Assembly: GCA_964502365.1 (NCBI GenBank)
Contig: CAZCWQ010000004.1
Location: 1-59,274 of the forward strand
Reading direction: 5' to 3'
Length of the DNA stretch: 59,274 nt
Origin: an uncultured Desulfobacterales bacterium
GTDB taxonomy: Bacteria > Desulfobacterota > Desulfobacteria > Desulfobacterales > C00003060
Shown here: positions 8,320 through 58,830 of the stretch, one piece after another
Layout: each line of letters opens with the position of its first letter
How positions within the stretch are numbered: position 1 is the stretch's first letter
Position numbers and translations under genes: made by a program
The notes under the pieces: model-generated
Databases searched by the model: none
What the model was told of the DNA's origin: nothing
The model's input: the letters and a program-made list of their open reading frames with translations, nothing else

Positions 8320-8355
8320 ACCTTACCCCTGTACGGAACTGTCGCTCAGTATCAC

Positions 8356-42082: not shown

Positions 42083-44056
42083 CTAAGAAAAGTGTGGAGC
42101 AGGAGTGGGATTCGAGCTGTGTCCTCGGAGTATCCGACTATCTCCCACAGGTACTGTATACTGAATACTATCCAAGTAGTCCAGCAGGGTAGCCGCACGA
42201 CTACAGTTAATTCCGGCCAACTCCTTCAAGTCGACAATAGAAATCTGGCCATGTTTTGCTACATAGCCTCCAACTATGTTCTTGATTCCTTCCAGATTCT
42301 TCCTATGCATATAAGCTCCTTTTTGTAATGGATGCCTTTTCGACAAACGAGGGTTTCTTACGAATATCAGATCCTCAACTTTTGTTAGGAACGAAACGAC
42401 ATTATGTACCTCTCTGGGGTCAGCGTGATTCATGGCTATCAGCAAGGCGTTCATGGTGAAAACTGCATTTTGCTTCTGGGTGGCAAACTCTTCTATGGCA
42501 GAACGAACAATCTCTTGCGTAGGGCTTAAATGTGCTTGAAAGTCAGCCAGCCGAACGATTCCTTTGTTTGTGAAGATAACGTCTTCTTTCAATAGTTCCT
42601 CGATAAGATGCTCAAACACACCAATATCTATGTGCCTGAAATAAGACGACCTCATGTCCTCCTTGGGGATACCCCTTTCAAGAGGATTCGTCTCGTGAAA
42701 TTGTTTGATAACATTTACCATCTGGATCTTCATTGCATCGTATTTTTCTCTATGAAAGAATTGATCATTTCCCAGTGAAACGATTCTGCATTTTTCTTCA
42801 AGACTCGTCAGGATTTTTTCTATTCTCTTCCGACTAACCCCGGTCTTGCTGCTCAAAGTCTTTATGCAGATTGGGCAGCATGTCTCCTCCTTAATTACAT
42901 TTTCTATGACCTCGTCATCTGCGCCATCCATGATAAGTCTCAAATACTGAACATTAGCTCCGCCCCCTCTTCTAAACTTCCTTCTTGCGATCTCGAGAAC
43001 AGTTCCGCCTCCAATAGTGGTCACCGGACTCAAGGTCCTAACAATATATCTATCGAAAGGAAGCGGGGTGAGTCTGTCAAGAAGGCGAAACTGCACAAAG
43101 GCACTTTCTCCCGGACGGACCACATCTTTATCCATAAAAACCATAAGCGCATTCGTTTCACTTGCACCTGTATGAAATCTGATTCTTGTCCGGTTTTGCA
43201 AGGGCTTTGTTTGAGAAGCTAAATAGTAGAATCGAGCATTTAGGAAATGAGAGGACATCAAACTTCCCGGTTCACCGACAACCATTCCCCTACAAATGTC
43301 GCTCAGTCCAACCTGAGGCAGGTTCAGTGCCACCCGCTCGCCAGCATATGCTTCATTAACCTTTTTCCGATAAACCTGGATGGAACGAACTCTGTCCCGT
43401 ATGCTTGAAGGATATATCTCTATCTCATCTTCCTTTCCAATCTTACCTGAAGCCATAGTTCCAGTCACAACAGTTCCAAATCCCCGCATATGAAACACTC
43501 TATCAATGGGAAGACAAAAAACCCCTTCAGGATCCTTTGTCAGACTAGTTTCGCCAAGTGTCTCCAAGGCAGTCTCGATCTCCGCTTTGCCTTCAAGGGT
43601 GCGTACAGAAAAAGGTACGCACGGGGCACCTTCCAAAAAGGAGCCCCTGGTTAAGTCATTGATTTCATCCATGGCCATTGCTATGAGTTCTTGATCTACC
43701 AAATCCACCTTTGAAAGCACTACTAAACCCTGCCTAATACCCAGTAGCTTGAGGATATCAAGATGTTCTCTGGTTTGGGGCATCACACCATCATCAGCAG
43801 CCACCACCAACATTGCCACATCAATCCCGCATATACCGCGAAGCATATTTTTTATGAAACGCTCATGACCCGGCACATCTATAAAGGCCATATTTTGACC
43901 AGAGGGAAGGCTATAAGGAGCAAAGCCCGGCTGTATAGTCAACCCTCTTTGTTTTTCTTCCTGCAAAGAATCTGTGTCTATCCCGGTCAGGGCCTTAACC
44001 AAGGCTGTTTTTCCATGATCAACGTGTCCAGCCGTTCCCACAACCACATGCTTCAA
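42083..44056 (-). CDS. selB: Selenocysteine-specific elongation factor SelB (start placed at TTG 44056)
   Basis: It has GTPase motifs AGHVDHGKT, DVPGHERF and SKVD, EF-Tu-like domains II/III and about 250 aa of C-terminal winged-helix repeats ending in LDYLDSIQYTVPVGDSRILRG. GGAGG (44068-44064) lies 7 nt upstream of the TTG. The 40 codons further upstream in the track ORF are the tRNA gene read as protein. Confidence 0.9.
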   Translation of the reverse strand: MKHVVVGTAGHVDHGKTALVKALTGIDTDSLQEEKQRGLTIQPGFAPYSLPSGQNMAFIDVPGHERFIKNMLRGICGIDVAMLVVAADDGVMPQTREHLDILKLLGIRQGLVVLSKVDLVDQELIAMAMDEINDLTRGSFLEGAPCVPFSVRTLEGKAEIETALETLGETSLTKDPEGVFCLPIDRVFHMRGFGTVVTGTMASGKIGKEDEIEIYPSSIRDRVRSIQVYRKKVNEAYAGERVALNLPQVGLSDICRGMVVGEPGSLMSSHFLNARFYYLASQTKPLQNRTRIRFHTGASETNALMVFMDKDVVRPGESAFVQFRLLDRLTPLPFDRYIVRTLSPVTTIGGGTVLEIARRKFRRGGGANVQYLRLIMDGADDEVIENVIKEETCCPICIKTLSSKTGVSRKRIEKILTSLEEKCRIVSLGNDQFFHREKYDAMKIQMVNVIKQFHETNPLERGIPKEDMRSSYFRHIDIGVFEHLIEELLKEDVIFTNKGIVRLADFQAHLSPTQEIVRSAIEEFATQKQNAVFTMNALLIAMNHADPREVHNVVSFLTKVEDLIFVRNPRLSKRHPLQKGAYMHRKNLEGIKNIVGGYVAKHGQISIVDLKELAGINCSRAATLLDYLDSIQYTVPVGDSRILRGHSSNPTPAPHFS

Positions 44057-44079
44057 AATGCAACCTCCATTGCAGAAGT

Positions 44080-44171
44080 TGGAAGGGGCAAGGGGAATCG
44101 AACCTCCTCCTCGTTTCTTAGACGAGGCCAACGGGTTTGCAGCCCGCGGGGCGCCCAGCACCTTTGCCCCT
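44080..44171 (-). tRNA. tRNASec-like tRNA with Cys anticodon GCA and U73 (selC*/tRNAReC-like)
   Basis: Hand fold of 92 nt. The acceptor stem is 8 bp (AGGGGCAA/TTGCCCCT) and the D arm is GGTG/CGCC. The anticodon stem GCGGG/CCCGT carries the loop CTGCAAA. The variable arm is CCTCGT/ACGAGG (6 bp). The T stem GG(A)GG/CCCC carries the loop TTCGATT. The discriminator is T and CCA is encoded. Confidence 0.85.
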
Positions 44172-44374
44172 AACAAACCATAGATACGAAAATGGATTTT
44201 GTCTCTACACTCTTTTCTCGATTGGTCGATTCGTACAGATTACGCTGCCGGAATACTGTTTGCTAATGAAAGAATCTTATGCGGCAGGTCTTCTTCTCGC
44301 CTCCGGTCTCCCCTTTTCTCGTGTTCGGGATCAGTTGAGCCTATTTTACAGACATTCTATCTGGAGAATATCAA

Positions 44375-44437
44375 TATGTCAAATAGATAATGTCAATCCT
44401 ATTGTCAGGGAAATATAGTGATAGTCTATGTCAAATA
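44375..44437. promoter_or_regulatory. Cluster of TGTCA-containing repeats upstream of the tRNA-selB unit
   Basis: TATGTCAAATA occurs twice (44375-44385 and 44427-44437). AATGTCAAT and ATTGTCAGG lie between them. AATAGATAAT is at 44382-44391. Confidence 0.4.
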
Positions 44438-44536: not shown

Positions 44537-46000
44537 CTACCTGAGTTCGGCCAAGTCCCTGGATATGACAAGCAAAAACCCCAAGGGGAAGACCATCAGG
44601 AAGGGTATAGCTATCCACGTCCCTCTTTCCCAGGCAAAAAACAAGGGCAGGAGGGTGTATAAGAACAGGGCTGCATTCATGATGATGTACGACCAAGCCC
44701 GCTGACGGTAGAGATAAGCCAACTTAGGCAAAGGAGCGCCGCCGTGAACACCAAATTTCGCAGTGCGCCTAAAAATACCACCTTTACATATCATTCCTTG
44801 AACAACCGCCAGTCCCAGGCTGGGTGCCAGACCTATGGTCAACATTGGAAGGAGAAGTAGTGGAAGAAAAGGATTTCCATCCTTTTGCTTAGCAGCGTAA
44901 AGACAAAAGTAAAGCATTACAGCCCCGCTTCCAAAAAGAAGAAGGGGAAAATCAGACCGAAACAGTTGATATGGCCCTATTCCAATTCTAACATGAATCG
45001 CAGGATAAAGGGTAAGGGTCACGATGGCACCCAGCAGCCAGCCAAAGTTAGCCAATAGATGTACAGAGGCCTCAACTTTCAGCCGAAGTGGCACAGAACG
45101 GGACAGCAGGAGAGAAGGAAGGATTTTTTTTGCTGTTTGGATCGACCCTTTTGCCCAGCGCTGTTGTTGGCTTCGAAATGCGCTTAGTGTTACGGGAAGC
45201 TCGGAAGGAACGACCAGGTCGTCAACATATACGAACCGCCAACCTGCAAGTTGAGCCCGGTAGCTCAAATCCAGATCTTCCGTTACGGTGTCGGGTTTCC
45301 AGCCTCCAGCTGACAGGATGGCTTCCCGTCGCCAAATACCCGCGGTACCATTGAAGTTAAAGAAGAGTCCTCGCGTGAATCGGACCTGATGTTCGATCCT
45401 GAAATGCTGACCTAGAAGCAAGGATTGAACACCTGTAAGCCAAGAACGTTCCTTATTCAAGAAACCCCAACGGGCTTGGACCATACCAACTCTTGAATCT
45501 GAAAAGTAGGGTACGGTCCGAACCAAAAAGTCACGAGGAGGAACAAAATCAGCATCAAAAATAGCTATGAATTGCCCAGTTGCGTCGGCAAGGCCTTGGT
45601 CCAAAGCTCCAGCCTTGAAACCGTCACGGCTCTCACGACGAAATACCTTGATGTCAATCCCGTTCCCTGACCAATGTGCAACTCGCTCATCCACAATCGT
45701 CCTCGTATCGTCTGTAGAGTCATCTAATACTTGTATTTCTAACCTCCTGCGGGGCCAATCTAGTCTTGCCGCAGCGTCAATGAGACGTCCTGCCACAAAG
45801 CGTTCATTGAAAAGCGGCAACTGGACAGTTACACTACATGGCCTTGAGGCGGAAGGGCCAGCTTTTTCTGCTACGCTAGGATCGAGACGTTGTGAGCACC
45901 AACACGCAAAAAACCACAGTCTGTGCAAACCGTATAGAGCAAGACCTCCCAAGGCAAAAAGATAAACAGTTATCCAAAATTGTTCAATGCAAGAACTCAT
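44537..46000 (-). CDS. Membrane-embedded processive family 2 glycosyltransferase (cellulose-synthase-like superfamily)
   Basis: 487-aa ORF with N-terminal TM helices, DDSTDDT, DADF, a QQQRWAKG (QxxRW) motif and a multi-TM C-terminus. Confidence 0.85.
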   Translation of the reverse strand: MSSCIEQFWITVYLFALGGLALYGLHRLWFFACWCSQRLDPSVAEKAGPSASRPCSVTVQLPLFNERFVAGRLIDAAARLDWPRRRLEIQVLDDSTDDTRTIVDERVAHWSGNGIDIKVFRRESRDGFKAGALDQGLADATGQFIAIFDADFVPPRDFLVRTVPYFSDSRVGMVQARWGFLNKERSWLTGVQSLLLGQHFRIEHQVRFTRGLFFNFNGTAGIWRREAILSAGGWKPDTVTEDLDLSYRAQLAGWRFVYVDDLVVPSELPVTLSAFRSQQQRWAKGSIQTAKKILPSLLLSRSVPLRLKVEASVHLLANFGWLLGAIVTLTLYPAIHVRIGIGPYQLFRSDFPLLLFGSGAVMLYFCLYAAKQKDGNPFLPLLLLPMLTIGLAPSLGLAVVQGMICKGGIFRRTAKFGVHGGAPLPKLAYLYRQRAWSYIIMNAALFLYTLLPLFFAWERGTWIAIPFLMVFPLGFLLVISRDLAELR

Positions 46001-46191
46001 GGATACGCCACTTCGTTGGAACTGGTATCGTCCCCGCTCAAACTGTTTCTTATTTCAATTACGCTTCACAAGGAAAACCACTGCAGCCCACCGCTAGAAG
46101 CGCCTATTTCTCATTTTGTATGACATTTTATAGAAGCACTCTTTCAGAAGCAAATTGATTTTTTGAATAGAGCAGTTCAAAATGTATTGAG

Positions 46192-46216
46192 ATTATCTAT
46201 TTGCGTAATAGATAAT
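46192..46216. promoter_or_regulatory. Perfect 10-bp-arm palindrome ATTATCTATT-n5-AATAGATAAT (candidate operator)
   Basis: Read directly from the sequence. It lies in the divergent intergenic region between the GT2 gene (-) and the barrel-rhodanese genes (+). Confidence 0.5.
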
Positions 46217-46231
46217 ATTAGTGTAAAAAGG

Positions 46232-46251
46232 TATGTAATGTTAATTACATA
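46232..46251. promoter_or_regulatory. Second palindrome TATGTAAT-n4-ATTACATA
   Basis: Perfect 8-bp arms, about 45 nt upstream of the ATG at 46296. Confidence 0.4.
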
Positions 46252-46295
46252 ACAGAAGCATTAGGTGCAAAGAAGCTAAGGGGAAAGGAGTTTCT

Positions 46296-47135
46296 ATGAA
46301 AAGGAGTGTTATCATTACTGTGTTTACATCTTTAATTGTGTTGGCCTTGACAAATCAAAGTTTTGCTGGCGCTTGGACGCGAGAAAAGGGCAGTTCTTAT
46401 AACCGGCTTGCTTTCAACTATTATTACTCCAATAAGAATTACATCGAGAACAGTGACAGGGTAGCCTTCCCTAATGATGGCTGGTTTCAAGATGTGAATC
46501 TCAATTACTATGTGGAATATGGACTAGTCGACCGTACTACACTTATTGGATCCTTTTACTACAAGTGGATCAGAAAGCAAGACAGTACAATTAGAATGAA
46601 GACTTATGGAGTCGGGGATGTCGAACTGGCTGCCAAATACAGAATGCTTGATTCCTCTTTCGGTATTCTTTCAGCCCAAGGATTGATCAAGATTCCGGAA
46701 CTCTATGATGAGGACGACGCTCTTCCCCTTGGCAACGGGCAGTATGATTTCGAAGTGAAACTTCTATACGGACGTTCTCTGTGGCCCCACGTCCCTGGCT
46801 ACTGCAATTTCGAGGTCGGCTACCGCCTGAGAGCGGAAGAACCTGCCGATGAGTTCAGATTCGTTGCTGAATTGGGCCTCAACTTTGGACAGCATTTTTA
46901 CGGCCGCGTCAAGGCAGATGGCATTCTGGGCGCTGATAACGGCGAAACAATTGTTGATATTAGTGGCAATCCCTCAATTACCAATGACTTTGATCTGATA
47001 AAACTCGATATGGCGTTTGGATATAAGATCACGAAAAGTTGGGCAGTGGAAGCAGCATGTACCCCTTCGATCTATGGCGAGAACACAGCAGCCGGTACGA
47101 CTTACACGCTGGCTCTGGTGATGGAGACCTGGTAG
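46296..47135 (+). CDS. Putative outer-membrane beta-barrel protein
   Basis: 279-aa ORF with a signal peptide (…LALTNQSFA/GAW), an alternating amphipathic pattern rich in Tyr/Gly and a terminal aromatic residue (…METW). Confidence 0.65.
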   Translation: MKRSVIITVFTSLIVLALTNQSFAGAWTREKGSSYNRLAFNYYYSNKNYIENSDRVAFPNDGWFQDVNLNYYVEYGLVDRTTLIGSFYYKWIRKQDSTIRMKTYGVGDVELAAKYRMLDSSFGILSAQGLIKIPELYDEDDALPLGNGQYDFEVKLLYGRSLWPHVPGYCNFEVGYRLRAEEPADEFRFVAELGLNFGQHFYGRVKADGILGADNGETIVDISGNPSITNDFDLIKLDMAFGYKITKSWAVEAACTPSIYGENTAAGTTYTLALVMETW

Positions 47136-47292
47136 GCGCGTCCGTTCGCCTAGGGCTGATCGCCAAGATTGGGGTATTCGAAGGTCAATTCTGAAAGGGA
47201 AATCTTAACGAAAGGGGGTGTATCGATACCTTAGCACATGCTCTCATAGGCAAATGCCTTTGAGAATCTCTTCAATAATAGGAGGCGACAAA

Positions 47293-49389
47293 ATGAGGAG
47301 GAGAAACTATTACTTATTAACTTTCGTCGTGTTAATTGTTTTAGCTGGTCTCTGCCTAAACGGTTGCGGCGAGTCGGTGGACTTGGCGGAGCAAGGATCA
47401 ATATCAGGTTTGTCTGAAGAAACTCCGTCAGGTTCTGTCTTGGCTTTTGGGACAGGTGATTACCCAAACTCTGAACTTCTTGTGTCTGGAGAGGAGATTG
47501 AAGACAACCTGTCCAAGGTGCGGAAAGCGAGCCTTCAGGCCAGCCAGGCAGAGACTGCCGAATCTTATGACTTCGTCATCATTGACGCAAGAGGCGAACC
47601 ACTGCCCGACCCACAGGACCCCGATTATGACCAGCACCCGTACGTGCAAGGGCACATTCCGGGTGCTATTAGCCTAGCTTGGCAGCAGTTTGGCGCACCA
47701 AACTTGAACCCGGTGTCAGAACTTGAAGATGTCTTGACCAACACAGGTATCACCAGAGACATGACCATCGTCATTTATGATGATACGACAGCATCATGGG
47801 GTGCCGCCGGTCGCGTCTTTTGGACTCTGGAATACTTGGGGTGTGAAGATGTGCATCTTTTGCAAGGCGGCTGGGACAAATGGGTGGCCGACGGCCGGCT
47901 TACTGAAACCAGGGCCAACACTTTGCCGGATGCTCCAGCGTTTGTCGCCCAAGTCAACAATGACATCATGGCCACAAAAGAACACGTAAGTGACCGGCTA
48001 GAGGATGACGACTTCGTGATCATCGACTCCCGGACCGACGAGGAATACAACGGCTGGACGCTCTACGGTGAAGCCCGGGGCGGACACGTTTCGGGGGCCG
48101 TGCAAATCCCTTATGAGTGGTTTTTTTACGAAGACAAGACCATATTGAGCAGCGATGATCTGCAAGACCTGTTTGAGTCCAGGGGTATCACTCTGGACAA
48201 GGAGGTGAGTTCTTACTGCACGGCTGGTATCCGCAGCGGATTCGTGTACTTTGCACTCCGCCTAATGGGGTATCCGAACTGCTCGAACTACGATGGGTCC
48301 ATGTATGACTGGGCTGTTGCTTCCGTGGCTGATCCCGATGTCTACCCCATGGAACAAATGGCCAATTACCAGAAGCTTGTACATCCAGGATGGGTGAAAA
48401 ACCAGCTTATCGACGGGAACAACGCTGGCAAACCCTATGTCATCGTTGAAACGTCGTGGGGCCCTGCCGGCGACTATTATAATGACGGTCACATTCCAAA
48501 AGCAGTACACGTGAACACGGATGAAATCGAATATGACTGTTTCAACCCCCGCAATGACTGGCCTGTAGACCCCGGAGACCCTCCTTGCTGGGATCGCAGC
48601 ACCACTGAGGAGGAGGATGCCGCTAAAGGTCTAGGGCCAGATGACGCGCTCCCTAAAAACTGGTGGAATCTCTACCCAGACCAATATCTACTGCCTGCCA
48701 TCGCCTATATGGGGATTGATAAGGACACGACGGTCGTTGTGTACAGCAAAAGTTTCTCGGCCGCAGCACGGATCGTGTGGACGTTGATGTATGCGGGCGT
48801 TGAGGATGTGCGCCTGCTTAACGGCGGCAAGGACACCTGGGTAGCAGCCGGCTACACATTGGAAACCACAGCCAATGATCGCACCCCCGTGTCTGAGTTT
48901 GACCCCGAAGACCCTGGCGCAACATCAGCCCTTCACCCGGAGTACCTTGTGGATACGGCCTATGTCCTCCAGGCAACGGCCGATCCAAACAACGTCGATC
49001 CTCCTGCCGTGATTGCCGAGATTCGCAGGTGGGAGGAGTTCATCGGTGCCTCCCGTCCCTATTCCTATATCCCCGCTGATGGCCGTATTGCAGGTGCCGT
49101 ATGGGGCCACAATACAGATGCCTTTGTCGACGCTGACGGGACTCTTCGAACCTACACGGAGGTTGAGAAATTGTGGTCCGAAAATGGCATTACCTCCGAT
49201 ATGTCGGCGAGCTTTTACTGAGGGACAGGATGGAGGTCAAGTTTGGCCTGGTTTTTGGCCCACCTGATGGGCTGGGACAATATCACCAATTATGATGGTT
49301 CATGGTATCAATGGACTGAGGGGCTGGATCCGCTGGATCCCGGCTATCCCCCTAACCCCGTGGTGGATGAGGAGCCAGATCTGCCCTAG
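47293..49389 (+). CDS. Four-domain YnjE-like rhodanese lipoprotein with in-frame TGA (49219-49221) at the last catalytic Cys position; candidate selenoprotein
   Basis: The ATG at 47293 follows GGAGG, and a lipobox is present (LCLNGC). The domains run inactive/active/inactive/active, with active loops YCTAGIRS and FY-TGA-GTGWRSS. Reading through the TGA gives 55 further in-frame codons (GTGWRSSLAWFLAHLMGWDNITNYDGSWYQW...) that complete the rhodanese fold. Confidence 0.75.
49243..49272 (+). promoter_or_regulatory. Candidate SECIS-type hairpin(s) downstream of the TGA
   Basis: There are two mutually exclusive small hairpins 22-50 nt after the TGA. One is TTGGCC(tggttttt)GGCCCA and the other is GCCCA(cctga)TGGGC. 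Neither was evaluated with a model. Confidence 0.3.
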
Positions 49390-49694
49390 AAGTTAGGAGA
49401 GCGTGACTTGTTGTGCTATCAAGAAGCATCTTTGAACAATTAGTCAGAGAGGTATTGGGACCTAGGGCAAAACAACAGCAATACATGAGGCAAAAGACGG
49501 GAAGCCATGGGAGGCGTTTCAGGGTCCCCTCGCCTTCCTAGTGTATACATCCTATGGGATTCAGTTCGTTCAAGTTGGCGCACGAGTGGTCATTTTGTTT
49601 CGATTCGACGTGCCCAGCAGAGGGTTCATTATACTTCCGTAGGTTCGTGAACCCCACTGCCAGTTATGAAGCCTAGCTTCGAAGATGAGACACC

Positions 49695-51545
49695 ATGTGT
49701 CTTTACAAAACCATAGCCCCAGACTCGGTAAGAAAAGACTTGGCCCATGACGGCGTTGATTCATTACCTAGGACAGAGGCAAAAAGCATCTTTGAAAAAT
49801 GCATCAACTGTGAGCTCTGCCAAAAGGAGTGCCAACTCCTCAGAAAGTACGGCAAGCCCAAGGATATTGCAGAATCCTATAACCCTTCTGATAATGACCA
49901 TCAGGCTGTGCCCTTTGAGTGCAGCCTTTGCCAGCTTTGTGCTGCGGTGTGTCCCGTGGATGTCAATCCTGGCAACATGTTCCTGGAGATGCGCCGGGGG
50001 TTGGTAAACCAGAGGAATGGGGACTATCCAGAATATTCCACTATCCTCGGGTACGAACGGCGGGGAACGTCCCGTCGCTATACCTACTATGCTATTCCTG
50101 CTGGTTGTGACACCATCTTTTTTCCAGGTTGTACCCTCCTGGGCACCAGGCCAGACAAGACATCAGAACTCTATGATCACATGAAAAAGGACATTCCCGC
50201 ACTGGGGATCGTCCTCGACTGCTGCACAAAGCCCTCACATGACCTTGGTCGACAAGATTATTTCAATGCTATGTTTGATGAAATGAAAGGTTTTCTTATA
50301 AGAAACGGCGTTTCAAGAGTTCTCGTTGCATGTCCCGACTGTTATGATGTCTTCAGAAAGTACGGCGAGGAGCTCTCTGTCAGAACAGTCTATGAGTTCA
50401 TGGTAGAAAACGGTTTGCCGAACAAAGAAGAAGTGAATGGAACTGTGACCATTCACGATCCATGTGTTATCAGGTGGGAAGAGGCCATTCATTCTGCTGT
50501 CAGAGATCTGTGTACAAGAAAGGGACTAACCATCGAAGAGATGCCCCATCATGGGAAAACAACAATGTGCTGTGGGGAAGGGGGCGCGGTCGGTTGCGTG
50601 TCACCCCATCTTGCAAACAAATGGGGAGCTCTCATCAAGAAGGAAGCTAATGGCAGGAGGATTGTTACTTATTGTGCTGGGTGTGCAAATTTGTTAGATG
50701 CCATAACACCCACCAGCCATGTCCTGGATGTCTTATTTGAGCCGGAAACCACACTGTCTGGCAAAGCCAAGGTTTCCAAGTCGCCGGTTACCTACCTGAA
50801 CCGGCTAAGGCTGAAGAAGCGGCTCAAGAATACGGTCAATGCTTCAGTAACACGGGAGAGGACATTCACTGGGGGGGAGGAAAAGAAAAAAGGAACAGTG
50901 ATTAAGCGCGTCTTTTTTCTTTTGGCTATCCTGACTGCGATTCTGGCAGTGCGGTTCACAGGTGCAGCACATTACCTGCAACAAGAGACGCTCAGGCAGT
51001 GGATTCAGGGTTATGGAGCACTGGCTCCGGTTGTTTACATGCTCATATACACGGTTGCACCGGCCCTCTTTTTGCCTGCCCTTCCCATCACCATAGTGGG
51101 CGGAGTCCTCTTTGGCCCGTTCTGGGGCGTGGTTTACACTATCACCAGTGCTACCTCAGGTGCTTGTGTGGCCTTCATCATATCACGTTACATAGCCAGG
51201 GAATGGATCGAGGAAAAGCTGAAAAGTCCGAAATGGCATCAGCTTGACGAGGGGGTGCAACGGCATGGATGGAAGGTTGTTGCCTTCACCCGTCTGATAC
51301 CGTTGTTTCCTTTTAACCTGCTTAATTACGCCTTCGGCCTTACGAAAATAAGATTTATCCACTATGCCATAACGACATTCATCTGCATGCTCCCAGCCTG
51401 CATTGCATATGTTGTCTTTTCAAGCTCGCTGCTCGATGTGATAAAAGGAAGGATATCTCCCGCATTTATTGCCGGGATGGGTCTCATTGTGCTGGTCTCG
51501 TCAGTGCCCATTTTTTACAGACGCTACAAGGCAAAAAAAGGATGA
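49695..51545 (+). CDS. Fusion protein: 2x[4Fe-4S] ferredoxin motifs plus two CCG Cys-rich domains (HdrD/GlpC/LldE-like) plus a C-terminal TVP38/DedA (SNARE-associated) membrane domain
   Basis: The ferredoxin motifs are CINCELCQKEC and CSLCQLCAAVCP. The CCG-type motifs are ...PGCTL...DCCTKP... and HDPCV...MCCGEGG...YCAGC. From about aa 400 there are TM helices and the TVP38 signatures GVLFGPFWG and FTRLIPLFPFNLLNYAFG. Confidence 0.8.
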   Translation: MCLYKTIAPDSVRKDLAHDGVDSLPRTEAKSIFEKCINCELCQKECQLLRKYGKPKDIAESYNPSDNDHQAVPFECSLCQLCAAVCPVDVNPGNMFLEMRRGLVNQRNGDYPEYSTILGYERRGTSRRYTYYAIPAGCDTIFFPGCTLLGTRPDKTSELYDHMKKDIPALGIVLDCCTKPSHDLGRQDYFNAMFDEMKGFLIRNGVSRVLVACPDCYDVFRKYGEELSVRTVYEFMVENGLPNKEEVNGTVTIHDPCVIRWEEAIHSAVRDLCTRKGLTIEEMPHHGKTTMCCGEGGAVGCVSPHLANKWGALIKKEANGRRIVTYCAGCANLLDAITPTSHVLDVLFEPETTLSGKAKVSKSPVTYLNRLRLKKRLKNTVNASVTRERTFTGGEEKKKGTVIKRVFFLLAILTAILAVRFTGAAHYLQQETLRQWIQGYGALAPVVYMLIYTVAPALFLPALPITIVGGVLFGPFWGVVYTITSATSGACVAFIISRYIAREWIEEKLKSPKWHQLDEGVQRHGWKVVAFTRLIPLFPFNLLNYAFGLTKIRFIHYAITTFICMLPACIAYVVFSSSLLDVIKGRISPAFIAGMGLIVLVSSVPIFYRRYKAKKG

Positions 51546-51640
51546 CAGATCTTTTGTGAGATTCAACCGAGCGATTATAATACAGCCGTCGGTGCACCAG
51601 CCCCGGTAGTTTCGAATCTTGGCTTTGCAGATCACATGCC

Positions 51641-52363
51641 ATGTATTTAGGAAAAACCATAGCCCTGCTTCTTCCGGCAAGAAACGAAGCGGCTGCCTTA
51701 CCTGGCGTCCTTAAGATGGTTCCTCAACAGGTGGATCGAGTCCTAGTGCTTGATAACGCTTCCATAGATTCGACTGCACAGGTAGCAAAGGAACACGGAG
51801 CAGAGGTTGTCATAGAGAATAAGCCGGGATATGGGCGAGCCTGTCTGCGAGGGTTAAAGTTTCTCGAAACCAATCCTCCTGACATTGTAGCCTTTGCGGA
51901 TGCAGACGGCAGTGACAATCTTTCTTTCCTGCCTGAGATGCTCAAGCCCCTTGTTAAAGGAGACTCTGATCTGGCATTAGCTTGCCGGATCCCTGATAGT
52001 CACGACGCCATGAGTGCTCAGCAACGCCTGGGCAACTGGCTGGCCACTCAGCTCATACGCCTTTTCTGGCGCCATGTGTACAATGACCTTGGACCCATGC
52101 GGGCCATTGCATGGAAGGCCCTTTCTGAGCTCCATATGAGGGATCCGAACTACGGGTGGACTGTGGAAATGCAGATAAGAGCCCTCAAGAAGCGGTTGCG
52201 GGTAAGGGAATACCCAGTCTTGTACTACAAAAGGGCCGCAGGCCGTTCGAAAGTCAGCGGTTCCTTGGTGGGCAGCCTTCGGGCTGGAATAAAGATACTG
52301 TGGATCATCGGGCGGGAAGCCATTTTGAGAAAATCCAGCTGGCAACAGTGTGATGTCTCTTAA
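51641..52363 (+). CDS. Family 2 glycosyltransferase (polyprenyl-phosphate glycosyltransferase-like)
   Basis: 240-aa ORF with LLPARNE, LDNASIDST and ADADGSD motifs. Confidence 0.85.
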   Translation: MYLGKTIALLLPARNEAAALPGVLKMVPQQVDRVLVLDNASIDSTAQVAKEHGAEVVIENKPGYGRACLRGLKFLETNPPDIVAFADADGSDNLSFLPEMLKPLVKGDSDLALACRIPDSHDAMSAQQRLGNWLATQLIRLFWRHVYNDLGPMRAIAWKALSELHMRDPNYGWTVEMQIRALKKRLRVREYPVLYYKRAAGRSKVSGSLVGSLRAGIKILWIIGREAILRKSSWQQCDVS

Positions 52364-52368
52364 GTCTT

Positions 52369-53850
52369 TCATCCGGTCGTCAATAGACTATTTTGCCGTG
52401 CCACTGACCTGTAGATTGTAATAAGAACGAAGGCTGCTACCGGTCCTATCCACGTCATGAATGCAGTTACGTCACCTTCAACCCATTGTCCACCCAAGGC
52501 ATAGGGTATAAGGACACGATATCCCAGGAAGACTGACCAAGTAAATATTAATCCTGCTGGCCCTGCAACAAAAGGGAGAAAACAGACCAGATATAATGCG
52601 TACCAAGGATGAAGGGTGGGCGTGAAAAGCAAGAACGTTATCATGATATTGTATAGCACTGAAAAAAGCATTGAAATTATTTGCTTGCTGGCACACTGGG
52701 TGTCGTATTCCAATTTCTTAAGGTAAAGCTTAACATATAGAAAAATTGTCGCTGTGAGAAAGGCGGAGCCCAGAGCCAACCTAGCAGCATTTCCGGAGAC
52801 CATTAAACGCCGCAAACTTCGATAGGCAAAGCTGCCAAATTCCCAGTGCTTGGCGTATTCTCTCAGAGTGCCGAGGGCATTTAGGACATCGGGAAAGAAA
52901 GGGAGTGTCAACAATAAGAATCCAATCATGATGCCTATCATTGCAAATGTCAGGCATCGTCTAGGCAATAGGATCAGACATCCTGGTATGAAAATGAGGG
53001 CGAAGAGTTTAACGAAACCTGCACAGGCAAGAGCCAAACCTGCAAACAAAAATAAATGGATTCTAGTTGATAACAAATGACCGTGGACTAAAGAAACTAA
53101 GCCATGGGAGTTATTAGTAGACCGCAAAGCAGCTATCAAGGTCAAGAAGCCAAGAAGAAAAAACAGTAACCCGGCCCCGTCTACATGACCTGAAGCGGCA
53201 ATTTCAAGGACCGGCAGGGGGTGCCATGCATAGAGGGCGGCCCGCCAAGCTGGGAGTTCCAGAGTAGAGAGCAGCCGCAGGATTACAGCGCATGTTGCCA
53301 GGTCCATAGCCACCAGCATGGATTTAAGGCCCAGTACGCTGCTGCCTAATGCGGATCCTGCCATGAATATGAGTTGAGCCGCAGGAGGATAAATGGTGAC
53401 TAGGTCTGGGTGGTTAACTTGTTCCAACAAATTGACTAGGATGCCACCCAGAGGTTGGCTGTCTGCGGGAGGAAGAGAATAAGGATTGTGCCCTGACAGG
53501 GTCTGAAGTCCGTCCCATAAGTATCGATAGATATCATCTGAGAGTTCAGGTGATCGAAACCAAAAAATGAGGCGAAGGCATACAGCCACAAGCATGATCA
53601 TACAAGGCGTCCATTTGATTGCTTGCTTTTCTCCCAAATACAGAGCAATAGCGAGAAGAACAGTCACGTTAGCCGTGACACCAGTGAGAGTGGGAACAGC
53701 GAGCCGCAAATCTGCCTTAATAGCTAATAAACCATAGGAGGCCACGATGAGAAAAGGTATTCCCCACGTGAGCCAGAAGTTCGTCCTCATCTTATCGAGT
53801 ATTTTAGTACCGTCCATCTTGATGCCGTGCGTTTTTCCGGCAGAATGCAA
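52369..53850 (-). CDS. Polytopic GT-C-type glycosyltransferase (DUF2029/GT87-like); the true start may be an internal Met (about 53790)
   Basis: 493-aa ORF with more than 10 TM segments. The first loop has an Asp-containing motif (SDDIYRYLWDG) typical of lipid-linked-sugar-dependent GT-C enzymes. Confidence 0.65.
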   Translation of the reverse strand: MHSAGKTHGIKMDGTKILDKMRTNFWLTWGIPFLIVASYGLLAIKADLRLAVPTLTGVTANVTVLLAIALYLGEKQAIKWTPCMIMLVAVCLRLIFWFRSPELSDDIYRYLWDGLQTLSGHNPYSLPPADSQPLGGILVNLLEQVNHPDLVTIYPPAAQLIFMAGSALGSSVLGLKSMLVAMDLATCAVILRLLSTLELPAWRAALYAWHPLPVLEIAASGHVDGAGLLFFLLGFLTLIAALRSTNNSHGLVSLVHGHLLSTRIHLFLFAGLALACAGFVKLFALIFIPGCLILLPRRCLTFAMIGIMIGFLLLTLPFFPDVLNALGTLREYAKHWEFGSFAYRSLRRLMVSGNAARLALGSAFLTATIFLYVKLYLKKLEYDTQCASKQIISMLFSVLYNIMITFLLFTPTLHPWYALYLVCFLPFVAGPAGLIFTWSVFLGYRVLIPYALGGQWVEGDVTAFMTWIGPVAAFVLITIYRSVARQNSLLTTG

Positions 53851-54643
53851 TGGGGCTGCAACTTATGACCTTGCTCTTATCGAACCAGCGACTCTCAACC
53901 GCAACCTTTCAGATTGGATCGTCCTCGATGCTCGTCCGAAAACCGAATGGCGAACTTCACATATACATGGTGCCATGTCGTTTTCCTGGGAAGACTATAC
54001 TTCAACGGACAAGAAAAATATACCTTACAGGATCTGGTCGCCAGAAAAGATAGCTGCGGCCCTGGGAAACATGGGAATTAGTGAAAGCAGTCGAATCGTA
54101 GTGTATGGAGATGCGGACACAAGCTGGGGGGGAGAAGGATGGGTGTGTTGGGTATTCACATGGCTGGGGCATCAGGGACCCATCCGTGTGCTCGCCGGGG
54201 GGATCCAGTCCTGGAAAAAGCATGGCTTTCCCATGGGGCCACATGTTAGACAGACGGCAGGTGTACCAGTGGAGTACAGATTCAAAGTGAGGCCACAAGT
54301 CAATATCACAACAAATGAGATTGAGCAGGAAAAATCGAACATCGTACTGGTTGACACGCGTTCAACCCTTGAGTGGATCAAAGGACATCTCCCAGGCGCG
54401 GTTCATGTAAAGTGGAACCGATTCTACTCGGGAAAGGATCGACGTCCCCTGAGCTCCAATGAGATGAGAGACCTTTTGCACCGGCATAAGGTTGGCCAAC
54501 AGAAACCAGTAGTTTATTACTGCACGGGCGGGATTCGATCGGCATATGCTTGGCTGGTGCATACGTTATCCGGAATGCCACCAGCACGCAACTACGAGGG
54601 GGGAACGGAAGCCTGGAAGCGTCTTTCTTCCGATTCCGGTTAG
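53747..54643 (+). CDS. Two-domain rhodanese sulfurtransferase (SseA/TST-like)
   Basis: 298-aa ORF. The N-terminal domain is inactive (YGDADTSWG) and the C-terminal active loop is YCTGGIRS. A hydrophobic N-terminus suggests export. The start is uncertain because it overlaps the divergent gene. Confidence 0.8.
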   Translation: MRKGIPHVSQKFVLILSSILVPSILMPCVFPAECNGAATYDLALIEPATLNRNLSDWIVLDARPKTEWRTSHIHGAMSFSWEDYTSTDKKNIPYRIWSPEKIAAALGNMGISESSRIVVYGDADTSWGGEGWVCWVFTWLGHQGPIRVLAGGIQSWKKHGFPMGPHVRQTAGVPVEYRFKVRPQVNITTNEIEQEKSNIVLVDTRSTLEWIKGHLPGAVHVKWNRFYSGKDRRPLSSNEMRDLLHRHKVGQQKPVVYYCTGGIRSAYAWLVHTLSGMPPARNYEGGTEAWKRLSSDSG

Positions 54644-54707
54644 CTTCTTATTTTCCCATGAACCCTTCATTATTATATTACTGTTGCTTTAGTCACTTTT
54701 AACACTC

Positions 54708-54736
54708 TTGACTTGGCCTATTCAGCACCCTATATT
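54708..54736 (+). promoter_or_regulatory. Near-consensus sigma70-type promoter TTGACT-17 nt-TATATT
   Basis: TTGACT is at 54708-54713 and TATATT at 54731-54736. The site is about 55 nt upstream of the ATG at 54791. Confidence 0.55.
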
Positions 54737-54790
54737 GCGTTTCACAAAGTGCGTGAAGAACTTTTAGACTTTGGGAAAGGAGGTGTTAAT

Positions 54791-55051
54791 ATGGAAGGAA
54801 AACATGAACACAGGCACCTGCATTCTCACGAGCACACCCATCTTCACACCCATGAGCACCGGCACGGGGATGAGGTCCACAACCACGAACACTCACACGC
54901 GCACACCCACGAACACGAGCACGAACATTCCCACGAGCATTCTCATCCTGGAGACAAGCATGTGCATAACCACGATCACAGCGGAGACCACGGCACCCAC
55001 GACCATGTCCATCCAGGTCATGAAGCTGAAGTGCACGATCACACGCACTGA
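54791..55051 (+). CDS. Histidine-rich small protein (putative metal-binding or metal-storage protein)
   Basis: 86 aa, roughly 40 percent His by eye, with HEH/HxH repeats (HEHTHLHTHEHRH...HTHEHEHEHSHEHSH). AAGGAGG lies 7 nt upstream of the ATG. Confidence 0.75.
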   Translation: MEGKHEHRHLHSHEHTHLHTHEHRHGDEVHNHEHSHAHTHEHEHEHSHEHSHPGDKHVHNHDHSGDHGTHDHVHPGHEAEVHDHTH

Positions 55052-55073
55052 GTCTCTGCACAACTGGCTTTCA

Positions 55074-55110
55074 AGAAAGGGCGAACCCACAAGGTTCACC
55101 CTTTCTGCTT
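55074..55110 (+). terminator. Strong hairpin after the His-rich gene (terminator or attenuator)
   Basis: AGAAAGGGCGAACC cacaa GGTTCACCCTTTCT pairs at 13 of 14 positions. GCTT follows it. Confidence 0.5.
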
Positions 55111-55149
55111 GTGGAATACTTATTCCATTCGTAACATGGAGTGGCTAAT

Positions 55150-56169
55150 ATGCAAATAGATCCTAAGGTCACGGACATTGTTGCCAAGGTATTGGATGGT
55201 CACCTTCTTACACGGGATGAAATCGACTTTGCTCTGAAAATTCCTGCTCATTCTCCTGAGGCTGGCCTTGTAATGGCGGCTGCTGACGCAATTAATCGTG
55301 CAGCCTCAAAGGGCAAGGCTGAAGTTCACGCTCAAATAGGTGTTAATCTGTCACCTTGCCCGAACAACTGTTCATTTTGTGCATTTGCTGCCAAGAATAA
55401 GGTCTTCAAAGAAAGAAATGAACTTAGCGCAGACAATGTTACTAAACTGGCGCTGATAGCAGAGCGAGACGGAGCTAACGCGATATTTTTCATGACTACC
55501 GCTGATTATCCCTTTGGTAAATTCGTAGAGATATCAAAGGAAGTCAGGACAGTACTTGCGCCGCACACGGTCATGATAGCCAATATTGGCGACTTTAATT
55601 ATGAAGAAGGTAAGCGGCTGAAGGATGTGGGTTATGCGGGCATATATCACGCTGTGAGAATGGGCGAAGGGGAAGAAACCAAGATCGATCCCAAGACCCG
55701 ACTTAATACTCTTAGAGCTGGTCGTGACGCTGGGCTGTTGATCGGCACATGTGTGGAACCTGTAGGTCCGGAACACTCCATAGAGGAGATTGCCGAAAAG
55801 ATTCTCATAGGACGGGGCATGACACCCTGTTACAGCGGTGCCATGCGGAGAATCAGTATACCGGGCTCTGAAATGGAGAAATATGGAATGATAAGCGAGT
55901 ACCATTTGGCATTTCTGGTTGCCGTTGTTCGATTGGCCATGGGCAAGGAGGTTATTGGAAACTGCACTCATGAACCTAACGTGCTGGGGGCAACATCTGG
56001 GGCCAACCTATTTTGGGCCGAAGTAGGTGCCAATCCCCGCGATACGGAGGTTGAGACTTCCAAGGGGCGAGGATCGGGCGTGGGATCGTGTGTTAAAATG
56101 TTCAAAGAAGCTGATTTTGACATACTTCAGGGGTCATCAGTTATTTACAGCAACAACCATCGTGGCTAA
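55150..56169 (+). CDS. Radical SAM protein, BioB-like family
   Basis: It has the CPNNCSFC (CX3CX2C) motif and a TIM-barrel-like length. The ATG at 55150 lies 8 nt after GGAG. Confidence 0.85.
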   Translation: MQIDPKVTDIVAKVLDGHLLTRDEIDFALKIPAHSPEAGLVMAAADAINRAASKGKAEVHAQIGVNLSPCPNNCSFCAFAAKNKVFKERNELSADNVTKLALIAERDGANAIFFMTTADYPFGKFVEISKEVRTVLAPHTVMIANIGDFNYEEGKRLKDVGYAGIYHAVRMGEGEETKIDPKTRLNTLRAGRDAGLLIGTCVEPVGPEHSIEEIAEKILIGRGMTPCYSGAMRRISIPGSEMEKYGMISEYHLAFLVAVVRLAMGKEVIGNCTHEPNVLGATSGANLFWAEVGANPRDTEVETSKGRGSGVGSCVKMFKEADFDILQGSSVIYSNNHRG

Positions 56170-56375: not shown

Positions 56376-56825
56376 GTGAGCGGGACGAACATCAACTGTC
56401 CGCCTCACACGCCTGATCCAGAACGGATCAGACAAATAGTCCAAGAATTTCAATACGCTGTTTTCTTCAAAGTGGATGGACCCTATGAGAAAGACAGTGG
56501 GAGCATCCAGGAGATGAAGCTGAAGAACCTTGAGATTTTATCAAAAATCGAGGCCCAAGCATATTATGATGGCTACTATCTGGCTGTTGGGTTTGGCGGA
56601 GCATCGTGTAAAACTACCCTTTGCTCTGACGAGGATTGCAGGGCTTTGCAGCCCGGGAACTCATGTAGACATCCGTTAAAGGGAAGGCCTTCTATGCACG
56701 CAGTAGGGATGGATGCTTACAAAATGGCAACCCGGGCAGATTGGAATATCTATCCGATTGGAAAAGCGACGGTGCCATCTGAAGTACCATTCGTCTCCCA
56801 CTTGGGACTCATCCTCCTCTATTGA
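56376..56825 (+). CDS. DUF2284-like Cys-rich metal-binding protein, apparently N-terminally disrupted
   Basis: 149-aa ORF (GTG) beginning within a ...C....C........CPP motif. The two upstream Cys codons lie in frame before the GTG but behind a TAG at 56307. A plausible N-terminus (MYDWKVFRAIQTHGY...) is in another frame at 56206. Confidence 0.5.
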   Translation: MSGTNINCPPHTPDPERIRQIVQEFQYAVFFKVDGPYEKDSGSIQEMKLKNLEILSKIEAQAYYDGYYLAVGFGGASCKTTLCSDEDCRALQPGNSCRHPLKGRPSMHAVGMDAYKMATRADWNIYPIGKATVPSEVPFVSHLGLILLY

Positions 56826-58073: not shown

Positions 58074-58120
58074 GGCCACGAAGGCTATCCACCTGAAGGT
58101 GGGGTTCGTGGCCTTTTTTT
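58074..58120 (+). terminator. Bipartite terminator-like hairpin plus T7 tract, copy 1, 12 nt upstream of the methyltransferase ATG
   Basis: The outer stem is GGCCACGAA/TTCGTGGCC and the inner hairpin is CCACC tgaa GGTGG. The tract TTTTTTT follows. Confidence 0.6.
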
Positions 58121-58131
58121 GTGAGCAGAAG

Positions 58132-58830
58132 ATGGAAAAGGAAATATGGAAAAGAGCAACAACATCGTCCTTCTGGCAAGGGTATTCCCGTTGGTACCAG
58201 CAATGGATGGCCCATAGTCATTATCACGACGGGATTACAAGAATCATGACCTTCATGGCAAGGCCCACATGGCGTGTTCTTGATATCGGGGCCGGGAATG
58301 GCGTTCTTTCCATGCCCCTGGCCCGAATGGGATGCGAGGTAACAGCGCTAGAGCCATCCTCGGCCATGAGACATCTGCTCAGGCAGGCAGCAGATCGCTC
58401 CCATGGTATGCACACTGACATGCGAAGATGGGAGACGGTTCCGTGCGAAGCATTTCGTGGTTATGATTTGATTTTAGCCTGCAACAGTCTTCATCTCACT
58501 CAAATTGGCTTTACACCAGCTTTGGCAAAGGTTTTTGCTACCGAGCCGAAACGCGTAGTCGTCGTCACGGAGTTTGTCTCCCCTGAAATAAGGATTCCCA
58601 TCCGGTTAAGGAATTACTACATGGAGTATGGCAGGATAGAGCAGGTAGACAGCTCCTTTGCCTACCACAGCGTGGATGAGGCCTTGGAGCACTGGTCCGC
58701 CAATAACGGCAAGCCTCCTGACACGTGGAAGTGTGACGAGATCAAGCAAAAGCTTGTGAACAGAGGGGATCACCTGTGGATAGAGGATTCGGCCTTCGTG
58801 GGTATTTTTTGTTGGAAGGCTTTCCAGTGA
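58132..58830 (+). CDS. Class I SAM-dependent methyltransferase
   Basis: It has the motif I sequence VLDIGAGNGVLS and the acidic motif II CEVTALEPS. The start is set at the ATG at 58132, after the terminator-like hairpin. Confidence 0.85.
   Translation: MEKEIWKRATTSSFWQGYSRWYQQWMAHSHYHDGITRIMTFMARPTWRVLDIGAGNGVLSMPLARMGCEVTALEPSSAMRHLLRQAADRSHGMHTDMRRWETVPCEAFRGYDLILACNSLHLTQIGFTPALAKVFATEPKRVVVVTEFVSPEIRIPIRLRNYYMEYGRIEQVDSSFAYHSVDEALEHWSANNGKPPDTWKCDEIKQKLVNRGDHLWIEDSAFVGIFCWKAFQ

Follow-up and report, generated by a model that had tools for sequence, protein, structure and literature searches.

A conserved envelope gene cluster around an FeS-CCG-DedA fusion protein in an uncultured Desulfobacterales bacterium, with a possible role in chalcogen trafficking

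Three consecutive plus-strand genes of a Desulfobacterales contig (CAZCWQ010000004.1, assembly GCA_964502365.1), here termed g1, g2 and g3, encode a predicted outer membrane β-barrel, a rhodanese lipoprotein with a putative selenocysteine (Sec), and a protein in which an iron-sulfur (FeS)/CCG reductase module is fused to a DedA membrane domain. The analysed DNA is a stretch of 59,274 nucleotides (nt) of this contig, hereafter the window. We show here that the conserved unit is a cluster of eight to ten genes, extending in the window over approximately 44537-56169 and not just 46296-51545. An earlier note on this DNA had treated the three genes as a unit; the open reading frames (ORFs) are present as it described, but they form a subset of the larger cluster. 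We tentatively propose that g1-g3 are linked members of a conserved envelope cluster for chalcogen trafficking, with selenium favoured over sulfur, and give this proposal slightly less than an even chance.

Anaerobes must take up trace selenium and hand it safely to selenophosphate synthetase; how they do so is an open question, for which YedE and YedF are mere candidates. Equally unexplained are the biochemistry of the YdjX/YdjZ branch of the DedA proteins and the frequent fusion of DedA domains to disulfide reductases or rhodaneses. A family of more than 2000 members that joins DedA to an HdrD-like reductase, repeatedly beside periplasmic rhodaneses, selD, yedF and a selenium LysR gene, offers a testable handle on both questions, also in Geomonas and Geobacter relatives that are in culture. 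For the uncharacterised ydjXYZ-ynjE locus of E. coli, a function is suggested as well. Should a chalcogen-bearing glycoconjugate be the true product, this would be new envelope chemistry.

Results

Relatives of g3 are numerous (2301 matches). Nearly all of the top 120, which we describe here, are ~590-650 amino acids (aa) long with the same DedA and CCG make-up, three are extended forms of ~841 aa, and their hosts are Thermodesulfovibrionales/Nitrospirota and Thermodesulfobacteriota. A locus search with the single protein returned one relative only, and an alignment-based search was required for the wider set. Retrieved were 85 g3 loci, 81 of them distinct (denoted below by L and a number); all flanking ORFs were clustered, taking in 84 sources with the window included, and neighbours were counted within 10 kb of g3. 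Rhodanese genes lie near g3 in 46 of the 81 loci, at a median gap of 1.4 kb. ArsS and/or a TIGR04283 GT2 glycosyltransferase follow with 26/81, the g1 barrel with 24/81, YdjY-like lipoproteins with 20/81, a GT-C glycosyltransferase with 19/81 and a small GT2 with 18/81 (median gap 13.5 nt), while a membrane GT2 was found in 21 and a BioB-like radical SAM protein in 12 of the 84 clustered sources, the window counted in both. Beyond g1-g3 the cluster comprises two GT2 enzymes, a GT87-like GT-C enzyme, a second periplasmic rhodanese and the radical SAM protein (Table 1). Geobacter, Geomonas, Desulfuromonas, Desulfobacterales, Desulfosudaceae and Syntrophobacteraceae carry these genes as one compact cluster, in which membership is kept and order is shuffled. 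The earlier note had named a lack of co-occurrence in other genomes as grounds for giving up its proposal; looked for in the 81 loci, the genes do co-occur, and the proposal therefore survives this test.

Table 1. Features of the cluster region, with positions in the window and the basis of each assignment.
Feature	Position	Strand	Basis and remarks
selB-type elongation factor (selB*), directly downstream of selC*	42083-44068	-	TIGR00475, 322 bits, above cut-off
selC*, tRNASec-like tRNA-Cys, anticodon GCA	44083-44172	-	ARAGORN; Rfam tRNA-Sec, 50 bits
Second palindrome copy, 3 mismatches	44367-44391		Overlaps promoter-like sites upstream of selC*
Membrane-embedded GT2 (CelA/PgaC-like)	44537-46000	-	Divergent from g1; conserved in 20-21 loci
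Perfect 10-5-10 palindrome ATTATCTATT-TGCGT-AATAGATAAT	46192-46216		Overlaps promoter-like site in the divergent membrane GT2-g1 spacer
g1, predicted 12-stranded β-barrel channel of the outer membrane, COG4313/'XagA'-like, with signal peptide	46296-47135	+	ORF, AlphaFold2, Foldseek, homologues
g2, predicted periplasmic lipoprotein and selenoprotein with four rhodanese domains (inactive-active-inactive-active), the C-terminal three YnjE-like	47293-49389	+	Pfam, PDB, BLASTP, lipobox
In-frame UGA, putative Sec replacing the catalytic Cys of the fourth rhodanese domain (FY-U-GTGWRS)	49219-49221	+	Cys/TGA alignment, downstream frame kept
SECIS-like hairpin	49222-49261	+	Inner stem-loop 49234-49249, apical loop AGUU
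g3, predicted cytoplasmic 2x[4Fe-4S] + 2xCCG module (HdrD-like) fused to a YdjX/YdjZ-type (COG0398) DedA/VTT membrane domain	49695-51545	+	Pfam, homologues
Small GT2, polyprenyl-phosphate-sugar synthase-like (AglJ/DPM/PpgS-like)	51641-52363	+	18-19 loci
GT-C glycosyltransferase (GT87/PimE/ALG3-like), 493 aa	52369-53850	-	Start may lie downstream of TTG 53850
Second exported rhodanese (predicted), two domains, loop YYCTGGIRS	53747-54643	+	Most frequent cluster partner of g3, 29 loci; signal peptides
BioB-like radical SAM protein	55141-56169	+	11-12 loci; directly after g3 in L087

The 616-aa product of g3 has the composition that the earlier note had read from the sequence. Pfam places Fer4_8/Fer4_17 at residues 34-91, CCG at 251-334 and VTT_dom at 460-577, the last (PF09335) with 98 bits against a cut-off of 33.9. 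Two ferredoxin motifs (C36xxC39xxC42xxxC46 and C76xxC79xxC82xxxC86P) precede a first CCG-like set (C146, C176C177, C213xxC216), in which CCG varies to CCT, and a canonical second one (C257, C292C293G, C327xxC330). All these cysteines are invariant in 15 homologues. With its two ferredoxin and two CCG motifs, and with Fer4_8, Fer4_17 and CCG above the Pfam cut-offs, the module is HdrD-like. Identity of the DedA half to YdjX and YdjZ of E. coli, the two DedA proteins compared, is 32-38%, and JGI labels g3 homologues 'YdjX (TVP38/TMEM64 family)'. We read no signal sequence in the N-terminal half, and a basic stretch leads from it to the first membrane helix; the FeS/CCG part should therefore be cytoplasmic, the orientation, and not the periplasmic one, that the earlier note had called for. 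The profile most similar to the FeS-CCG half is NCBIfam NF045663 'diclust_near_Sec' (E 2.3e-67), but we rejected membership of g3 in this family, because it scores 228 bits against the curated cut-off of 530 and matches only positions 293-668 of 759. Distant g3 homologues retain one cysteine of the DedA domain (LPAC, C569), which YdjX/YdjZ lack. As it is the only kept one, the case for a conserved cysteine relay in the membrane domain is thin and no more than suggestive.

Three of the g3 homologues (P0069, P0079 and P0085, 841-842 aa) have an added C-terminal membrane domain. This domain corresponds to a 219-aa membrane protein that is encoded ~11 nt after g3 in 12 loci (e.g. L027, 11875-12534). 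The protein, whose family is not known, is absent from the window, and its fusion is a hint of a further g3 partner. The loci with the closest relatives of g1 and g2, L088 (10368-11615) and L089 (5087-6325), have a g3 orthologue of 412-415 aa that stops after the FeS-CCG half, without a DedA domain and without a downstream ORF. Loss of the domain, a pseudogene or a break in the assembly could each account for this.

For g2 the most plausible start is ATG 47293 (MRRRNYY...LAGLCLNGC), and the reading frame ends with TAG at 49387-49389. The lipobox, the four rhodanese domains and both active loops of the earlier description are borne out by Pfam (PF00581, four stretches, 186 bits, E 1.4e-55) and by the sequence. 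Domain 2 carries the active loop SSYCTAGIRS and domain 4 the loop SFY-U-GTGWRS, while we read D or S at the catalytic cysteine position of domains 1 and 3; the C-terminal domain of each pair thus has the six-residue loop C-x4-R-[ST]. Residues 234-683 align with E. coli YnjE (BLASTP 1.4e-55; PDB entry 2wlr, 4e-50), whose loop CGTGWRA falls on the domain 4 loop, and YnjE and EanB are the closest solved relatives. A signal peptide followed by a lipobox cysteine is found in most of 18 long g2 orthologues. Both g2 and the second rhodanese of the cluster are predicted to be exported carriers of the persulfide/perselenide kind.

The domain 4 loop of g2 is interrupted by an in-frame UGA. The aligned codon specifies Cys in 22 homologous loops and is TGA in two more orthologues (L008 and L045); the closest orthologue found (L088, ~80% similar) has Cys. 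Downstream, 55 conserved residues follow in frame, among them the rhodanese core GTGWRS...NYDGSW. Because Cys and TGA are aligned in the orthologues and the coding frame is conserved beyond them, the UGA reads as a genuine Sec codon. The folding energy after the codon is unremarkable against shuffles of the single sequence (z = 0.31), and we therefore relied on the comparison of the three UGA and the 22 Cys versions. All three UGA versions (n = 3) have a hairpin with a GU-containing apical loop 13-28 nt past the codon, resembling a selenocysteine insertion sequence (SECIS). The mean minimum free energy of the region after the codon is -16.3 kcal/mol in these three, versus -11.4 +/- 3.5 in the 22 Cys versions, most of which have a weaker hairpin. 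Rhodanese selenoproteins with a UxxG motif are already part of prokaryotic selenoproteome surveys (PMC9312934, PMC13188914), hence the Sec feature of g2 belongs to a known type. Like g2, these proteins have Sec in place of the catalytic loop Cys and the motif U-G-T-G; g2 differs as a four-domain exported lipoprotein of the YnjE type, although the catalogued forms were compared by their Pfam Rhodanese or COG0607/COG2897 label only. An Rfam search of the 40-59 kb region returned only the tRNA-Sec-like gene and gave no match in the 305-nt spacer between g2 and g3.

The third partner, g1, codes for 279 aa with a signal helix at the N-terminus and a C-terminal aromatic residue (...METW). Its AlphaFold2 model, built on an alignment of 40 homologues, is an all-β barrel (pLDDT 86.5, pTM 0.80), as the earlier note had predicted. 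Foldseek matches the model best to the 12-stranded COG4313 channel 4rl8 of Pseudomonas putida in the PDB (E 5e-10, TM 0.69-0.72), with FapF as a further top match, so that the predicted fold is that of the COG4313/Phenol_MetA_deg channels. At the sequence level g1 has no Pfam match even at E <= 5, that of PF13557 included, and no NCBIfam match; PF13557 is present in only four of the 120 g1 homologues listed. Of the 221 homologues found, several are labelled 'protein XagA' by JGI. The idea that g1 is a YdjY homologue was ruled out, as there is no similarity. The earlier note had pictured an outer membrane pore; the barrel is of the COG4313/'XagA' type and not an anion porin. Gene order ties the barrel closely to g3: it adjoins g3 (<250 nt) in 15 of 24 loci and the membrane GT2 in 7 of 24, the median spacing to g3 is 35 nt, and both share a strand in 22 of 24 loci. 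The barrel is thus the tightest partner of g3.

As selenium markers we took selD, yedF, the selenium-metabolism LysR gene, selC and the pair selC*-selB*. At least one of them is found in 14 of the 81 g3 loci. The selD gene (TIGR00476, above cut-off) is present in six (L007, L010, L028, L038, L071 and L083), versus ~0.5 expected by our own estimate of one selD per ~3.5 Mb genome, and yedF (TIGR03527, above the NCBIfam cut-off) in five. Nine of the ten LysR genes near g3 are of the NCBIfam type 'selenium metabolism-associated LysR', all above cut-off. They stand divergently and directly upstream of g3 in L017, L038, L062 and L063 and are also near g3 in L029, L042, L053, L071 and L079; judged by this arrangement, g3 may be a direct target of the regulator. 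Among only five tRNA genes in all g3 loci, three are of the Sec type: selC* (GCA) followed by selB, arranged as in the window, in L010 and L079, and selC (UCA) in L053. In L010 a cysteine-desulfurase-family gene (TIGR01977) lies directly upstream of g3, with the selenocysteine lyase SclA as the second-best assignment, below the SclA cut-off; related class-V aminotransferase genes are near g3 in four further loci. These selenium neighbours are independent evidence that favours a chalcogen role, and selenium especially.

Locus L010 has a single plus-strand run from 4719 to 9875 that comprises a double-cubane reductase, its activase, selD, a small ORF, yedF and the cysteine-desulfurase-family gene and ends 84 nt before g3. 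This is a compact selenium-delivery neighbourhood. A 1431-aa ORF of the window itself (19715-24010) contains two BcrAD/BadFG-type ATPase (activase-like) regions, and activases of this kind accompany double-cubane proteins near selD in related loci.

The earlier note had pointed to a tRNASec mimic and selB close to g1-g3 and to an operator-like motif shared with them. Both genes are there. The window has the arrangement by which selC*/selB* loci are recognised, a selB-type gene directly preceded by a tRNASec-like tRNA that has a Cys anticodon, as given in the part of Mukai et al. available to us (PMC5389517); the descriptions in that part do not include a neighbourhood of selC*/selB* and g3. 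In the window the pair precedes g3 by 5-6 kb, and so it does in L010 (2459-4501) and L079 (2916-4931), both from Thermodesulfovibrionales genomes. The proximity is therefore real, but it is confined to three loci, and a tRNA with the anticodon GCA is unable to read the g2 UGA. The motif is present in two copies: a search for ATTATCTATT-N5-AATAGATAAT gave only these two matches in 59 kb, with 0 expected. No exact copy occurs in the other g3 loci, so that the shared palindrome makes co-regulation plausible in this organism alone. When the spacers between LysR genes and g3 were searched for an operator in common, they yielded only one half-site match: L062 (~4865-4880) and L063 (~4710-4725) contain ATTATCCATTTG, identical at 11 of 12 positions to the left arm of the window palindrome (46192-46203). 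This likeness may be due to chance.

Homologues of the GT-C enzyme carry PF09594 (GT87)/PF26314. Its AlphaFold2 model (pLDDT 85) is matched by Foldseek to ALG3, PIG-M (GPI mannosyltransferase I), PimE and ALG6, and the conserved stretch SDDIYRYLWDG, with S104-D105-D106 invariant, provides the acidic motif that GT-C enzymes have in their first periplasmic loop. Taken naively, the ORFs of the GT-C enzyme and of the second rhodanese share ~100-200 nt of their 5' ends, in the window as well as in L041 and L053. The true starts are therefore probably internal, which would make the two genes a divergent pair with a very short or shared control region.

Discussion

The route that we propose would begin with a reactive chalcogen species, preferably of selenium and in second place sulfane sulfur, entering the periplasm via g1. 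There it would be held covalently on the Cys/Sec loops of the rhodaneses and passed to the DedA domain, and the cytoplasmic CCG/[4Fe-4S] module would cleave the Se-S or S-S bond reductively to yield selenide or sulfide for SelD and other users. The DedA-CCG protein would in this way couple membrane passage to reductive release; cargo, direction of transport and hand-over steps are all what we infer. The co-conserved glycosyltransferases and the radical SAM protein imply an additional glycoconjugate step or a glycan-bound chalcogen. A bolder version, which we consider unlikely, sees in g3 an importer-reductase that anaerobes would use for selenium specifically and that would have been overlooked until now. 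The Sec/Cys rhodanese lipoproteins and a COG4313-type outer membrane channel would join it in a line across the envelope that feeds SelD. This line would be controlled by the selenium-metabolism LysR and, in this organism, co-regulated with selC*/selB* through the palindrome, and the glycosyltransferases would make a glycoconjugate bearing selenium or sulfur.

Several points weigh against chalcogen trafficking. The support for it is drawn wholly from homology and gene context. It is weakened most by the co-conserved glycosyltransferases, since these point to a glycoconjugate as product or carrier: the cluster keeps two or three glycosyltransferases and a radical SAM protein, superfluous for a simple relay. 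The g1 barrel resembles channels for hydrophobic molecules or polymer exporters more than anion porins. For g3, there is no obvious electron-input module and no electron-input partner was identified, and COG0398 DedA proteins are currently viewed as lipid scramblases and not as carriers of ions or small molecules (PMC10127716). About 40% of the g3 loci, one of them in a complete genome, have no rhodanese within 10 kb. The window itself lacks selD, yedF and the LysR gene, selC*/selB* adjoin g3 in so few loci and with an anticodon unable to read the g2 UGA, and selenoprotein-rich anaerobes may inflate chance nearness to Sec-related genes. Of the relay drawn in the earlier note, with an outer membrane pore feeding a periplasmic carrier and an inner membrane conduit, the co-occurrence, the exported rhodaneses and the selenium neighbours are thus retained, whereas the glycosyltransferases and the radical SAM protein remain unexplained and g3 stands without a rhodanese or barrel in ~40% of the loci.

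The chief alternative, itself rather unlikely, starts from the glycosyltransferases. Here, the cluster would build or export an envelope glycoconjugate, a glycolipid or exopolysaccharide (EPS), and the rhodaneses and the FeS-CCG module would have an accessory part, for example in redox upkeep or in decorating the product with sulfur. Synthesis and export would fall to the membrane GT2 and the 'XagA'-like barrel, the small GT2 would make the polyprenyl-phosphate sugar for a periplasmic GT-C enzyme, and DedA would scramble or recycle the lipid carrier. This agrees with the CelA/PgaC-like catalytic core and membrane spans of the one GT2, the likeness of the other to AglJ/DPM/PpgS, the GT-C fold with GT87 Pfam domains in homologues, and the conservation of all glycosyltransferases with g3 in 18-21 loci. 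The JGI label 'XagA' on g1 homologues fits as well, since xagABCD is required for EPS-dependent biofilm (PMC3609779), and DedA proteins flip undecaprenyl phosphate or phospholipids (PMC9876793, PMC10193950). However, g3 is, by its likeness to YdjX/YdjZ, probably of the COG0398 type, for which a function as undecaprenyl-phosphate flippase has been argued against (PMC10127716). A DedA domain recycling undecaprenyl phosphate for the GT2/GT-C pair is weakened by this YdjX/YdjZ likeness. Rhodaneses (46 loci) are also commoner neighbours of g3 than glycosyltransferases (18-21), and selD, yedF and the selenium LysR gene stand beside g3 in loci without any glycosyltransferase (e.g. L010, L017, L038 and L071). 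Moreover, lipid-carrier recycling as it is known has no place for a fused reductase of the HdrD type.

Chalcogen trafficking could also concern sulfur only, a reading that we hold to be distinctly unlikely. Polysulfide, thiosulfate or elemental sulfur (S0) would be handled for respiration, detoxification or assimilation, Sec would just be the better nucleophile, and the selenium neighbours would serve nearby selenoproteins. Rhodanese, TusA-like and DsrE-like neighbours are in line with it, YnjE and EanB are sulfurtransferases, and CCG enzymes reduce S-S bonds. The lineages of Desulfuromonas, Geobacter and Desulfocapsa, to which many g3 carriers belong, are known for S0 reduction or disproportionation. 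In Geobacter a periplasmic Sec-dependent polysulfide reductase adjoins the rhodanese ExtH (PMC13510729). Yet selD, yedF and the selenium LysR gene are specific selenium markers, and LysR is divergently paired with g3 in four loci; since most g2 orthologues have Cys, the neighbourhood does not simply track the Sec codon. Very unlikely is an organo-metalloid chemistry (As/Se sugars or lipids), in which g3 would transport and reduce a metalloid and the cluster would extend the ArsS/TIGR04283 'arsenosugar' neighbourhood. The 26 loci with ArsS (TIGR04167) and/or the TIGR04283 GT2, which continue the cluster in Geobacter-type loci, point this way, as do L004 and L079, where g3 occurs with ArsS. In L004 there is also a pair of DedA and a pyridine-nucleotide disulfide oxidoreductase, in L079 an aquaglyceroporin-like ORF recognised from its translation only, and a DUF2284 protein and a SAM methyltransferase follow the window cluster. 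But ArsS and TIGR04283 are both absent from the window, where the radical SAM protein resembles BioB and the small GT2 falls well short of the TIGR04283 cut-off; neither arsM nor any ars gene was seen, and we read the rhodanese loops as the six-residue sulfurtransferase type and not the CX5R type of arsenate reductases. A merely fortuitous adjacency of g1, g2 and g3, with the in-frame TGA as a true stop or pseudogene lesion, is effectively excluded. The ordinary folding energy after the UGA and the 305-nt spacer between g2 and g3 would fit it, but the neighbourhood is conserved across orders with shuffled gene order, the conserved rhodanese core is encoded past the TGA, and TGA with a hairpin recurs at the same codon in two orthologues, opposite Cys in 22.

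The individual parts of the proposed chalcogen cluster are of known kinds, and the earlier statement that no described system has this composition was overstated, as two systems partly precede it. The ydjX-ydjY-ydjZ-ynjABCD genes of E. coli, with the adjacent ynjE on the same strand, combine DedA proteins of what is probably the g3 subfamily with a YnjE rhodanese like g2. YdjY is an FeS-type lipoprotein, and homologues of it, up to 58% identical, directly follow g3 in several loci. Both E. coli transcription units are activated by FNR (PMC3688515). In contrast to the window, the E. coli parts are separate, there is no HdrD-like CCG module, outer membrane barrel, Sec or glycosyltransferase, an ABC transporter and an AhpD-like protein are added, and YnjE has one active domain compared to two in g2. 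In Geobacter sulfurreducens, a member of the Desulfuromonadales, as for g2 and g1, a gene for a rhodanese-like lipoprotein (ExtH) lies beside an outer membrane channel gene (ExtI). Geobacter ExtH and the porin ExtI have been implicated in selenite uptake and in selenite/tellurite handling (PMC5877670) and adjoin a Sec-dependent polysulfide reductase (PMC5877670, PMC13510729); the Sec-cytochrome ExtKL (MccSep) accompanies the pair. ExtI is a larger, phosphate-porin-like channel, while g1 is a predicted 12-strand COG4313-type barrel, and the Ext cluster has cytochromes but no DedA-CCG protein and no glycosyltransferases. We rejected g2 as an ExtH orthologue because it scores 71 bits against the NCBIfam cut-off of 200; ext cytochrome genes are absent from the 41-59 kb cluster region examined in the window.

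Other known systems share single elements. HdrD/DsrK/GlpC and NF045663 proteins share with g3 the succession of 2x[4Fe-4S] and two CCG motifs, placed on the cytoplasmic face of a membrane partner. In g3 this partner is a DedA domain rather than a cytochrome b and the first CCG reads CCT; compared to the NF045663 family, the N-terminal flavoprotein domain is missing. Todor et al. (2023) described frequent DedA fusions, of COG0398 members to disulfide oxidoreductases and of COG0586 members to rhodanese, and called the rhodanese connection unclear (PMC10127716). The g3 reductase is of the FeS/CCG kind and not a flavoprotein, and its hosts are strict anaerobes, whereas COG0398 was tied to aerobic metabolism (PMC10127716). 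A genetic link of a DedA protein to selenite (Ledgham 2005) is known to us as cited there (PMC10127716). Candidates such as YedE, YedF and LysR_Se were found by the same logic of a selD/Sec-gene neighbourhood, and yedF and the selenium LysR gene adjoin g3 (PMC5322559). However, g3 is unrelated in sequence to YedE, and Lin et al. list neither DedA and CCG proteins nor rhodanese lipoproteins as candidates (PMC5322559). In Xanthomonas xagABCD, xagA lies beside xagB (PMC3609779) as g1 lies, divergently, beside the membrane GT2, the XagA likeness being a JGI label; unlike xagA-xagB, g1 elsewhere adjoins g3 (15/24) more often than GT2 (7/24). No paper in the literature searched joins DedA, rhodanese, selenium and SelD, the literature on Sao proteins and on ydjX/ynjE does not describe this cluster, and the Haft preprint on the SAO selenoprotein system makes no mention of DedA, CCG, VTT or rhodanese. 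Thus, the fusion family and its conserved partnership with periplasmic rhodaneses, the barrel and selenium genes appear to be undescribed in the literature searched.

Further observations

Between the second rhodanese and the radical SAM gene, the window encodes a 112-aa protein (54713-55051) that consists mostly of His-x-His repeats and is probably metal-binding; other loci do not have it. Downstream of the cluster lie genes for a DUF2284 metal-binding protein (56376-56825), which is related to the C-terminal domain of the selenoproteins MbdU and ArsM-DUF2284, and for a SAM methyltransferase (58099-58830). In Geobacter-type loci (L041, 17303-19761; L060, 14390-18229) the cluster runs into genes for TIGR04283 'arsenosugar' GT2 enzymes, a MauE-like membrane protein and a small TsoB-like rhodanese, with ArsS coming next in L045 and L049.

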